A stretch of DNA of 64,000 bases from an uncultured Clostridia bacterium (GCA_944388795.1 CALXKD010000001.1:16084-80083), one strand, 5' to 3'. Positions 19,643 to 38,759 are shown, numbered from the stretch's first letter. Notes: generated by a model not told the origin, from the letters alone. Made by a program: numbers and translations.

Positions 19643-21163
19643 ATGGAAAAATTAAAAAAGATAAATAAAAGATATTTACATATTAGTATCATTATATTCG
19701 GAATTGTGTTTATATTTTTATCAGCATTTCATGCAAATATATGGTTTGATGAAAGTTATTCAGTTGCTATTGCAAAACACAGTTTTAGTGAAATTTGGAC
19801 AATAACAGGAAATGATGTTCATCCACCATTATATTATTGGATGTTACATATTATATGGATGATTTTTGGAAATCAAGTAATGGTATTTAGATTATTTTCA
19901 GTTTTAGCAATTGCTATATTAGGGATTTTAGGATATACCCATATTAGAAAAGATTTTGGAGAAAAAGTAGGTATATTATTTTCGTTTTTAATCTATTTCT
20001 TACCAGTGATGTGTACATATAGTCAGGAAATTAGAATGTATTCATGGTCATGTTTAATTGTAACATTATTAGCAATATATGGGTATAGATTATATAAAAG
20101 TGTAAAAGATAAAAAAGAAGTAAAGCTACAAAATAAAAATTTGATTTTATTTGGGATTTTTAGTATAGCAGCATGTTATATTCATTACTATGCATTAGCA
20201 GTAGCTGGGATTATAAATTTCTTCTTATTGATATATTTCATTAAAAATAGAAAAGAAAATGCAAAAATATTGAGGAATTTTATTATATTAGCTGTTATAC
20301 AAATTATATTATATATTCCTTGGTTATTATACTTAAAAGGACAAGTTGCTCATGTAGAAGGTGGATTTTGGATTACATTTGGAATTAGCACATTGGTAGA
20401 GGTTCCAAGTTTTCAATTTAGAAGACAATTAGATTCAAACTTTGTCTTTGATGCTAATACCATTATTGCATTAGTAGCAGCTTTAGCAATGTATGTATAT
20501 GTTGGATATAGAATATATAAAGCCAAAAAAGAAAAAGAAGAAATGAAGCCAGGCGTATTAGCTCTTGTATTATATGTTCTTGTAATTATTGCAGTATTAA
20601 TGATATCATTTGCTATGAAGCAATCTATTTTATTTGCTAGATATTTATTAGTTATAACAGGATTATATGCATTTGGACTAGCCTTTTTTATGGCAAAGGA
20701 AAAAAGAAAATGGGTAACTATTGTTATATATGCGATTATATTCATTTTAGGATGCATTAGTAATGTTACTAATATTACTATAAATTATGATGATAGTAAC
20801 ATGAAACAAATTGAATATTTAAGAGAAAATATTAAGCCAGAGGATATTATTATATATTCCAATATAGGAAACGGTGGTGTTATAGCAGCATTTTTCCCAG
20901 ATAATAAGCAATATTTCTACAATGGCGGTTATTGGGATGTAGAAGAGGCATATAAAGCTTATGGACCAGGTATGGAAACTGTATATAGTTATGAGGATAT
21001 AATAAAAGATTATCATGGAAGAATTTGGTTAATTGATTCTGAAAATTGTGGATTATATAATGAATTTCCAAAAGAAGGTCTTAAAACTATTGTGGAGCCT
21101 ATAGAATTTAAAACCAAATATCAAAATTATACATATACAATGGTATTGTTAGAAAAAGAATAA
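19643..21163 (+). CDS. GT-C fold membrane glycosyltransferase (ArnT/PMT family-like)
   Basis: About 11 TM segments. DE motif in the first loop (WFDESYS). 506 aa. Confidence 0.55.
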   Translation: MEKLKKINKRYLHISIIIFGIVFIFLSAFHANIWFDESYSVAIAKHSFSEIWTITGNDVHPPLYYWMLHIIWMIFGNQVMVFRLFSVLAIAILGILGYTHIRKDFGEKVGILFSFLIYFLPVMCTYSQEIRMYSWSCLIVTLLAIYGYRLYKSVKDKKEVKLQNKNLILFGIFSIAACYIHYYALAVAGIINFFLLIYFIKNRKENAKILRNFIILAVIQIILYIPWLLYLKGQVAHVEGGFWITFGISTLVEVPSFQFRRQLDSNFVFDANTIIALVAALAMYVYVGYRIYKAKKEKEEMKPGVLALVLYVLVIIAVLMISFAMKQSILFARYLLVITGLYAFGLAFFMAKEKRKWVTIVIYAIIFILGCISNVTNITINYDDSNMKQIEYLRENIKPEDIIIYSNIGNGGVIAAFFPDNKQYFYNGGYWDVEEAYKAYGPGMETVYSYEDIIKDYHGRIWLIDSENCGLYNEFPKEGLKTIVEPIEFKTKYQNYTYTMVLLEKE

Positions 21164-33811: not shown

Positions 33812-33841
33812 ATTATTTTATTTATATTATATAAAAAATGA

Positions 33842-33925
33842 AAAATTTCTTAGAGTGAGATACTCTAAGAAATTTTTTCATAAAAATGATATCAATAGAT
33901 ATCTGTAATGTCAATAGAAAAAGCA
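33842..33925 (+). repeat. Copy C of the terminator/direct-repeat cassette
   Basis: aaatttcttagagtgagatactctaagaaattttttcataaaaatgatatcaatagatatctgtaatgtcaatagaaaaa. Confidence 0.7.
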
Positions 33926-34067
33926 TATTCTCTAAAAATAAAGCAATAAAAATTAATCAAGAGTTTATAAAATAATAACTAGAAAAAATACCTCTATTTC
34001 AACTTTTGTGCATTTTCATAGCTTCTTAGAGTATCTCAATTTAAGAATGTATAGAGGGGGAAAATAG

Positions 34068-38537: not shown

Positions 38538-38585
38538 AAAATTTCTTAGAGTACATTACTCTAGGAAATTTTTTACGAAAATGTT
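38538..38585 (+). repeat. Copy D of the cassette (terminator hairpin part only)
   Basis: aaatttcttagagtacattactctaggaaatttttt. Confidence 0.65.
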
Positions 38586-38759
38586 TTTCTTAAAAGGTTA
38601 GTTTATCAGAAGATTCTTGAAAAGACTTTCTAATTTAACTAATATAGAAACTATATTTGTGATTTAAAACAAAATCAATAAAACTCTTTATTTTCAATGT
38701 TTCTAGAAATTTATATTTTCTTATAGTAATGTACAAAAAGAAAATATAAGGAGGAAAAG

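Follow-up and report, generated by a model that had tools for sequence, protein, structure and literature searches.

A terminator-like hairpin ahead of pilin-like genes in uncultured gut Clostridia is probably one end of an invertible promoter switch

Introduction

The fimS element of Escherichia coli, flipped by the tyrosine recombinases FimB and FimE whose genes lie next to it, is an invertible promoter for a surface appendage gene, carried on a single 314-bp segment with 9-bp inverted repeats. In the Cre/loxP and FLP/FRT systems, inverted arms surround a short asymmetric spacer, sites placed in inverted orientation give inversion, and recombining partners need matching spacers. In Mycoplasma penetrans, the mpl (P35) family consists of 38 surface lipoprotein genes at several loci, most with an invertible promoter of their own (Horino et al. 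2003, summarised in PMC2268961 and PMC10502178), and global promoter inversions in Bacteroides fragilis involve the recombinases Mpi and Tsr (cited in PMC2268961, PMC11602134, PMC10403206). In Clostridioides difficile, the tyrosine 'master' recombinase RecV flips some, not all, of the short segments upstream of surface and motility genes (cwpV, flgB and others; PMC5903667). Inverton group 139, or tyrosine 'invertase group 35', comprises 33 invertons, 32 of them from class Clostridia, near a tyrosine recombinase or integrase; its example from Clostridium sp. D5 (3525576-3525601 ... 3525807-3525832) has repeats of about 25 nucleotides (nt) and an element of about 256 bp (PMC11892184). Here we analyse positions 33842-33925 of a 64,000-nt stretch of DNA from an uncultured Clostridia bacterium (GCA_944388795.1 CALXKD010000001.1:16084-80083; hereafter the window), where a hairpin cassette lies ahead of a gene for a pilin-like protein, P3, and argue, with a probability of roughly 88%, that this cassette forms one end, the one farther from the gene, of an invertible promoter switch (inverton) whose segment spans about 175 bp.

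Results

Mirrored sites bound a segment with a putative promoter

A reading of the window from its sequence alone (the sequence-only reading) had reported the cassette at four loci (at the fourth, the hairpin only), each copy between an unrelated upstream gene and one of the pilin-like genes P1 to P4, and had proposed that the paralogs were duplicated together with it. All of the cassette sequences were located there, the setting is true of each copy, the paralogs do carry the cassette as a unit, and their products share the N-terminus ..KGITL(I/L)ALVITIIxLLILAG. The window holds two exact matches to the pattern TTTCTTAGAGT-N(3-9)-ACTCTAAGAAA, for which 100 shuffles give an expectation of 0.00, and a hairpin with at most one mismatch is present at 4/4 loci. 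The stems, described as invariant, contain an A.C mismatch at P1 (ACTCCAAGAA) and a G.U pair at P4 (ACTCTAGGAA); the loops do differ from locus to locus, as had been stated, with corrected lengths of 5 nt throughout (TAGAT at P1, CATTT at P2, GAGAT at P3 and ACATT at P4).

With one mismatch allowed, TTCTTAGAGT is found 12 times in the window, always within these loci and three times at each: as the 5' arm of the hairpin, as its 3' arm (on the other strand), and as a third copy 166-176 nt downstream of the first (at 10417, 12164, 34023 and 38718), about 20-30 nt ahead of the start codon and immediately in front of the ribosome-binding site. The motif TTCTTAGA(A/G)TATCT(A/C)AA previously noticed near the ribosome-binding site is this third copy plus its spacer. 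Because the arms follow each other in the order A, A', A, the 3' hairpin arm and the third copy constitute inverted repeats around the element supposed to be an operator, and an inner arm ACTCTAAGAA and the third copy TTCTTAGAGT bound a segment in this way at 4/4 window loci. At every locus the proximal spacer is followed by a degenerate copy of the other arm, and distal loop and proximal spacer are exact reverse complements at all four (GAGAT/ATCTC at P3, TAGAT/ATCTA at P1, CATTT/AAATG at P2, ACATT/AATGT at P4). Loop differences that had been put down to selection on structure are better explained as those of asymmetric recombination-site spacers, each with its exact mirror image in the partner site of its own locus. 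Each end is an arm-spacer-arm site and the two are inverted to one another, which amounts to a lox- or FRT-type layout for inversion.

At P3, the distal site (33847-33871) consists of an outer arm TTCTTAGAGT (33847-33856), the spacer GAGAT (33857-33861) and an inner arm ACTCTAAGAA (33862-33871), and the proximal site (34023-34047) of an inner arm TTCTTAGAGT, the spacer ATCTC and a degenerate outer arm AATTTAAGAA. Between them, the predicted body of the invertible segment (33872-34022) has the same architecture as at P2 and includes a putative promoter on the minus strand (33886-33914; TTGACA, 17-nt spacer, TG-extended TATCAT; 11/12) directed away from the gene, that is, in the OFF orientation. 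The corresponding elements of P1, P2 and P3 (TTGACA-17-TG-n-TAT(C/T)AT, minus strand) match the sigma-70/sigma-A consensus at 11/12 positions in a promoter scan, with an extended -10; in the window all three point away from the pilin-like gene, and the end of the -10 lies 14-15 nt from the hairpin. The TCAATARA pair, interpreted earlier as a transcription-factor operator and at P3 as the 'TCAATAGA direct repeat', corresponds at every base to the -35 and extended -10 on the opposite strand; it is the reverse complement of this sigma-A-type promoter and not an operator. TCAATARA alone is not enriched in the window (24 observed, 20.8 expected); the non-random feature is its pairing, with a constant pitch of 19 nt, next to the hairpin at 3/4 loci. 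Identified by its match to the consensus, the promoter would face the gene in one orientation of the segment only, and once P3 is inverted, the predicted distance from the end of the -10 element is about 14 nt to the proximal site and about 59 nt to the ATG.

The P2 segment inverts within one strain

The P2 switch consists of a distal site or hairpin at 11998-12022 (TTCTTAGAGT-CATTT-ACTCTAAGAA; free energy of folding (dG) -15.6 kcal/mol), a putative minus-strand promoter at 12037-12065 (TTGACA-17-TG-TATTAT; OFF in the window) and a proximal site at 12164-12188 (TTCTTACAGT-AAATG-ACTTTAAGAG). Contigs encoding exactly the window's P1 protein were fetched, giving 10 assemblies from other samples, to which a further look-up added two. 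Three independent metagenome assemblies of the same strain, L109 (ENA ERZ24773237), L113 (Logan SRR12730750) and L118 (ENA ERZ28614623), carry the window sequence with the interval 12005-12181 reverse-complemented base for base, between identical flanks and without insertion or deletion; seven others have the orientation of the window. The breakpoints can be resolved to the 11-nt identical cores at 12005-12016 and 12170-12181 (AGT-CATTT-ACT), which correspond to the hairpin loop plus 3 nt on each side, and a C/G polymorphism between the inner arms travels with the segment. Assemblers cannot be misled by a repeat of 11 bp, and the same result comes from three different pipelines, so the flip is no assembly artefact: the DNA at P2 inverts. 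All three contigs retain the P1 switch, 1.7 kb upstream, in unchanged form, and neighbouring switches therefore flip independently.

In the flipped state the putative P2 promoter faces the gene, its -10 ending 55 nt ahead of the GTG start. The suggestion of a possible phase-variable surface-protein regulon was thus right, whereas the mechanism is DNA inversion, seen directly here, rather than co-regulation by a common DNA-binding protein.

The switch family in related genomes

A hairpin scan of one genome per species returned 83 loci, and the pair counts given below refer to these loci together with the window. Nearly all come from about a dozen metagenome-assembled genomes (MAGs) of uncultured low-GC (26-29%) Clostridia from human, chicken and other guts, with several to at least nine switches per MAG in the retrieved blocks. 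Among 77 site pairs lying 120-280 bp apart, the spacers are exact reverse complements in 69 and directly identical in none; random re-pairing gives 1.8 reverse-complement pairs on average and 7 at most (1000 trials). The 56 gene-linked pairs contain at least 40 different spacers, mostly distinct per genome, and yield the distal consensus AAAA.T TTCTTAGAGT NNNNT ACTCTAAGAA A.TTTTT, in which the spacer is made of four freely variable positions and a mostly fixed T. Rather than being scattered over many loci away from pilin-like genes, as a generic repeat would be, perfect hairpins in related genomes have a matching partner in 95 of 114 cases, with a recognisable GITLIALVITIIVLLILAG-type gene within 1 kb in 71 of these 95; only 8 internal hairpins are without a partner.

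Both orientations occur among relatives. Gene-linked switches whose promoter orientation was scored comprise 48 OFF and 6 ON cases (the latter about 5 distinct loci), with the -10 element 14-17 nt from the adjacent site in most family switches whichever way they point. L001 (ON) and L002 (OFF), both in MAG CAKNJL, have promoter-plus-arm modules of 55 nt that are exact reverse complements of each other. At orthologous loci of two species, L049 (ON) and L012 (OFF), the flanks are collinear (74% and 91% identity), and the segments, 48% identical when compared directly, reach 82% once one of them is reverse-complemented.

In a subfamily from CAKNJL and its relatives (L001, L007, L012, L025, L041, L043 and L049), long leaders of about 160-430 nt separate the N-terminal motif from the proximal site; these hold a second, static promoter-like sequence, TTGACTTAATTC...TAAAAT, some 60-100 nt past the proximal site, and expression in this subfamily may not depend solely on the invertible promoter. 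Pattern matches in Bdellovibrionales, Methylomonas and 'Bacilli' MAGs (L023, L081, L042) were set aside as chance or unrelated, the switch architecture being absent from them, and a scan of viral contigs for the hairpin gave 0 matches and hence no phage link.

The distal site resembles a bidirectional terminator

The distal hairpins have the form of intrinsic terminators, as had been proposed, with dG values of -15.6 to -19.1 kcal/mol (z about -6.4 to -7.0), compared with -8.0 to -11.8 for the proximal sites, and a terminator scan flags those of P2 and P3. The A-tract before and the T-tract after the distal sites are 80-96% conserved, and at P3 the distal site together with these tracts (33841-33877) can be read as a terminator-like hairpin on both strands, with a 16-pair stem on the minus strand (dG -19.1 for the plus-strand and -18.1 for the minus-strand fold; z about -7). 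The outer arm of the proximal sites has 2.5 mismatches per 10 positions on average and no T-tract follows it, the other three arms having 0.3-0.4 mismatches each; because of this degenerate arm the proximal sites fold weakly (at P3, dG -8.0 and z -0.9, without a U-tract), and those with both arms intact are followed by A-rich sequence instead of a U-tract. This asymmetry fits a distal site that would stop both the upstream and the OFF transcript and a proximal site that would let the ON transcript pass. A scan of the whole window against Rfam at gathering thresholds found no RNA family, and an interpretation of the region as a riboswitch or leader RNA is accordingly without support.

A tyrosine recombinase family is associated with the sites

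In a second metagenome scan the same sites appeared in higher-GC Firmicutes contigs, adjoining a conserved tyrosine recombinase (PF00589 plus SAM-like N-terminal domains). Three contigs carry the recombinase gene between two sites with reverse-complementary spacers (L126, cassette at 3120-4525, GATTT/AAATC; L127, 655-1993, ATTCT/AGAAT; L140, 2586-3886, GTTTT/AAAAC), and in L141-L149 two of the sites likewise enclose the gene, around 2785-4211; in L128, L133, L137 and L005 one site comes just after the end of the recombinase gene, and the contig does not reach the other side. P0146, a 60%-identical homolog fetched by protein identity alone, is flanked by such sites in 9/9 contigs (TTCGTAGAGT-GCTTT-ACTCTACGAA and TTCGTAGAGT-AAAGC-ACTCTAAGAA, 1402 bp apart). 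Its 1.4-kb segment is present in both orientations relative to its neighbours, in five contigs versus four, and a polymorphism of the outer arm stays with the flanks, which places the crossover inside that polymorphism. The flanking of P0146 and of the genes in L126, L127 and L140 therefore ties this recombinase family to the site family, with the gene inside a self-inverting cassette.

The recombinase belongs to a large family: a search for its homologs gave about 8,000 matches, annotated only as integrase or recombinase. The PF00589 family is a candidate for the enzyme acting on the window switches, and a tyrosine enzyme is favoured over a serine invertase because the whole spacer matches, not a 2-bp core. 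In L141-L149 the recombinase gene stands beside genes for type IV secretion system coupling proteins (TraG-like), suggesting a mobile-element context, and in L127 an outward-facing TTGACA-17-TAAAAA-like promoter is found beside one site.

Weighing the switch against other explanations

Several observations weigh against the interpretation of these cassettes as working switches. The focal P3 element is in the OFF form of the window in 8/8 complete assemblies, and P1 and P4 keep the window's orientation in 10/10 assemblies each, so these three could be slow, OFF-biased or locked; P2, the sole switch seen flipping, precedes a gene that is frameshifted in this strain. The P4 segment (38568-38717) has no consensus promoter, its minus strand reading CTGATA...AAACAT between intact mirrored sites. 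No recombinase was found in the window, in the 10 kb past either end or in about 0.75 Mb of related low-GC-clade loci, as searched with regular-expression motifs, with phmmer using approximate XerD and Hin sequences and the site-associated recombinase, and with Pfam on the open reading frames (ORFs) of the window; the enzyme is assigned only through association in other lineages. Finally, the stems are AT-rich, with 3 G-C pairs, which makes terminator strength uncertain.

The alternative that fares best with these facts is that P1, P3 and P4 are fossils, always OFF or, in the case of P4, promoter-less, with their genes expressed, if at all, from other signals and P2 alone still flipping. Their invariance in 8-10 assemblies each, the decayed P4 promoter and the failure to locate a recombinase at the searched loci of this lineage are what such decay would leave behind; the sites of all three are nevertheless intact, with perfectly mirrored spacers, and in a strain variant (L119) both P1-type spacers have changed in concert, to TATAT/ATATA from the TAGAT/ATCTA of the window, which suggests continuing constraint. 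Invariance itself settles neither locking nor flipping, since consensus assemblies give the majority state only and OFF is the majority state family-wide (48 OFF, 6 ON). Two contigs (L089 and L090) moreover break inside the P3 switch. Taken as a whole, general fossilization appears unlikely, and inversion at P1 and P3 is strongly implied.

The P1 switch comprises a distal site or hairpin at 10250-10274 (TTCTTAGAGT-TAGAT-ACTCCAAGAA; dG -15.8), a putative minus-strand promoter at 10290-10318 (TTGACA-17-TG-TATCAT; OFF orientation) and a proximal site at 10417-10441 (TTCTTAGAAT-ATCTA-AACAAAAGAA). In the L119 variant, at 19875-20090 (ENA ERZ15808757 NODE_193; about window 10242-12204), the P1 gene is missing and the P2 coding sequence has a P1-type switch as its direct fusion partner. 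At P4, where the distal site or hairpin lies at 38543-38567 (TTCTTAGAGT-ACATT-ACTCTAGGAA; dG -16.2) and the proximal site at 38718-38742 (TTCTTATAGT-AATGT-ACAAAAAGAA), the switch has probably decayed; on the plus strand, a weak TTGAAA-17-TAATAT element (38617-38645) is directed towards the gene. A consensus promoter persists in the P4 ortholog of a chicken MAG (L069 4755). Metagenome contigs start or end in or beside switches in four instances (L089 1-176, L090 1-146, L111 1-168 and L115 1-43), L089 beginning with 58 nt unrelated to the window before it enters the P3 segment; mixed orientations that break the assembly graph, or other rearrangements, could account for such ends. A scan of the JGI metagenomes with a 35-mer spanning the P3 promoter and site gave 0 matches, and the close P3 orthologs P0001 and P0002, which follow immediately on another gene and lack a switch, are uninformative on flipping at P3.

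Far less probable is the arrangement favoured by the sequence-only reading, a static insulating terminator followed by a paired TCAATARA operator that co-regulates the paralogs with no DNA rearrangement. It would explain the terminator-like look of the hairpin and the retention of the repeat pair at a fixed 19-nt pitch at 3/4 loci, but this pair makes up the -35 and extended -10 of an opposite-strand promoter matching 11/12 positions, no operator would explain a third arm copy and mirrored spacers, and between flanks that stay fixed the module occurs either way round, also at P2 of the window, whose inversion largely refutes the idea. Independent insertions, in either orientation and with no flipping, of an element resembling a miniature inverted-repeat transposable element, with terminal inverted repeats and an outward promoter, would agree with the many copies per genome, their conserved ends and the lack of an adjacent recombinase, but are most improbable given both orientations at one locus of the same strain, where the flanks are identical and free of indels, the private spacer that each copy has at one end and mirrors at the other, interiors that differ greatly outside the promoter (68% mean column identity, conserved ends included), a fixed distance to the start codon of one gene family, and no target-site duplication evident by eye.

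The switched genes and their setting

On the plus strand, the P3 gene (34068-35159) encodes 363 amino acids (aa), with an N-terminal hydrophobic pilin-like helix followed by beta-sandwich domains; P1 (10463-11953; 496 aa) and P4 (38760-39908; 382 aa) have pilin-like N-termini as well, and P2 (12205-13140) has a frame break near 13110-13140, beyond which homology goes on in another frame. The label 'pilin-like' is partly supported. The PF07963 N_methyl profile scores 16.6-17 bits, below its cutoff of 21.2, in 2/4 proteins, and NCBIfam gives no match; all four proteins have Ala at +5 after the Gly, where pilins have Glu5, and no pilus machinery was found among the window ORFs scanned. A structure model of P3 (predicted local distance difference test score, pLDDT, 86) consists of two N-terminal helices, the long one covering residues 6-33, and beta-sandwich domains that are most like carbohydrate-binding and adhesin domains (CBM51, CBM6, CBM61 and the gingipain K1 domain). 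On the strength of this model, 'variable surface lectin or adhesin' seems a reasonable working description for a family in which P3 has more than 7,800 homologs, none of them named.

Around the P2 frame break (window 13060-13700), the reading frame ends in ...CCNQLTITRSGCWWNM* and homology to the C-terminal repeats of P1 (xxNCxNxG / GGIVG) extends to about 13690 in the other frame; the two pieces, of 311 and 56 aa, are found in all assemblies of this strain, and another strain (L110) has an intact 545-aa gene. The closest P3 homologs elsewhere (92-96% identity; L114, L116 and L117, 1-600) have no switch of their own and lie 27-72 nt behind another gene, which in one case encodes LRR_5 repeats; operons in which they take second place probably account for the expression of some members of the family.

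The switches and their genes are scattered singly among core genes, with no island, in a window of 28.7% GC that includes pheT, ffh, rpsP, rimM, trmD, rplS, dapA/dapB, queA/tgt, a fab cluster, pfk, an iron-containing alcohol dehydrogenase gene (Fe-ADH), valS and ftsZ. Two conserved ORFs are without a Pfam or NCBIfam family: a 360-aa HEXXH protein (9159-10241), just upstream of the P1 switch, and a 268-aa protein (3857-4663). FabZ, translated from the start codon chosen here, had no exact match among recorded proteins.

Discussion

These results suggest how the locus may work. A lox-like site of about 25 bp, with inverted 10-11-bp arms TTCTTAGAGT / ACTCTAAGAA around an asymmetric 5-nt spacer, would be paired with an inverted second site 166-176 bp downstream, about 20-30 nt before the start codon and bearing the reverse-complement spacer, and the segment between them would hold a strong sigma-A-type promoter 14-17 nt from one end. 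In the OFF state seen in the window, this promoter would fire away from the gene into the distal site, which, as a putative bidirectional intrinsic terminator, would end the transcript of the upstream gene as well as the abortive OFF transcript. A recombinase encoded elsewhere in the genome, most likely of the tyrosine type, would exchange strands within the spacer and flip the segment; in the ON state the promoter would then read through the proximal site, which should not terminate because its outer arm is degenerate and no U-tract follows, into the pilin-like gene. Because the spacer is locus-specific, each switch would flip alone, without recombination between loci. More tentatively, and at somewhat less than an even chance, a widespread Firmicutes tyrosine-recombinase family may recognise TTCTTAGAGT-N5-ACTCTAAGAA with a free spacer, and its sites may have multiplied in a clade of small gut Clostridia with low GC into dozens of mutually orthogonal, spacer-addressed promoter switches that are also bidirectional terminators, so that the glycan-binding surface proteins of a very large family would be turned ON and OFF in combinations. 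Such a system would be a natural counterpart of engineered heterospecific lox arrays, run by a recombinase whose gene in other lineages lies inside a self-inverting cassette of its own.

What looked like a static 'terminator plus operator' becomes, through the inversion at P2, a demonstrated DNA switch, and uncultured, genome-reduced Clostridia of human, chicken and other hosts would gain a system of surface variation comparable to the capsules of Bacteroides and the lipoproteins of Mycoplasma. The switches would account for the fragmentation of contigs at these genes and provide a probable regulatory logic for a family of over 7,800 proteins that have CBM-like domains and no annotation. In annotating such genomes, one should treat the distal site as a recombination site and a putative terminator at once. 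If confirmed, the proposed pairing of sites and recombinase family, with private spacers, could supply an orthogonal set of recombination sites.

A literature search with the arm sequences or the N-terminal peptide returned nothing relevant. By analogy of function, the mpl system of M. penetrans is the closest: it too is a family of surface genes in a low-GC host, each turned ON and OFF independently by its own small promoter segment, with candidate tyrosine recombinases acting on many loci. The mpl products are lipoproteins, whereas the proteins studied here combine a pilin-like helix with CBM-like domains, the site sequence is another one, and the hosts are uncultured gut Clostridia (GC about 28.7%); the window switches are bounded by full lox-like palindromes with locus-specific spacers, and the repeats of M. 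penetrans may include a terminator-forming third copy. B. fragilis, likewise a gut commensal, also controls its surface through many dispersed invertible promoters with a common inverted-repeat consensus and a recombinase that acts in trans and is not adjacent to most of its targets. Mpi is a serine recombinase; the targets in B. fragilis are capsule operons, its repeats follow one common consensus, the distal repeat is not known to be a terminator hairpin, and we know of no report of locus-private spacers in its inverted repeats.

The logic of a trans-acting 'master' recombinase is common to C. difficile RecV and B. fragilis and is proposed for the switches described here. In C. difficile, the invertible segments at cwpV and flgB do not contain the promoters, and regulation operates via the leader RNA, in which a terminator forms; a genome has just 7-8 sites, whose repeats are dissimilar, whereas here the promoter is inside the segment and one site consensus is common to dozens of loci. 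Inverton group 139 is close to the window switches in geometry and differs in having a recombinase nearby; it may include the TTCTTAGAGT-N5-ACTCTAAGAA site family, the comparison being one of geometry rather than of repeat motif. Unlike these switches, E. coli fimS has no terminator-forming site and serves no multigene family. With respect to loxP, arms of 13 bp around an 8-bp spacer contrast with arms of 10-11 bp around 5 nt, and what is seen here is natural use at many loci with at least 40 spacers, the dependence on the spacer being suggested by co-variation. Invertible-promoter phase variation is thus a known kind of control, met here in a new setting, whose distinctive features appear to be a full palindromic site with a locus-private spacer, the second role of that site as a putative bidirectional terminator, and the spread of such sites ahead of the genes of a single, huge protein family in gut Clostridia with reduced genomes.

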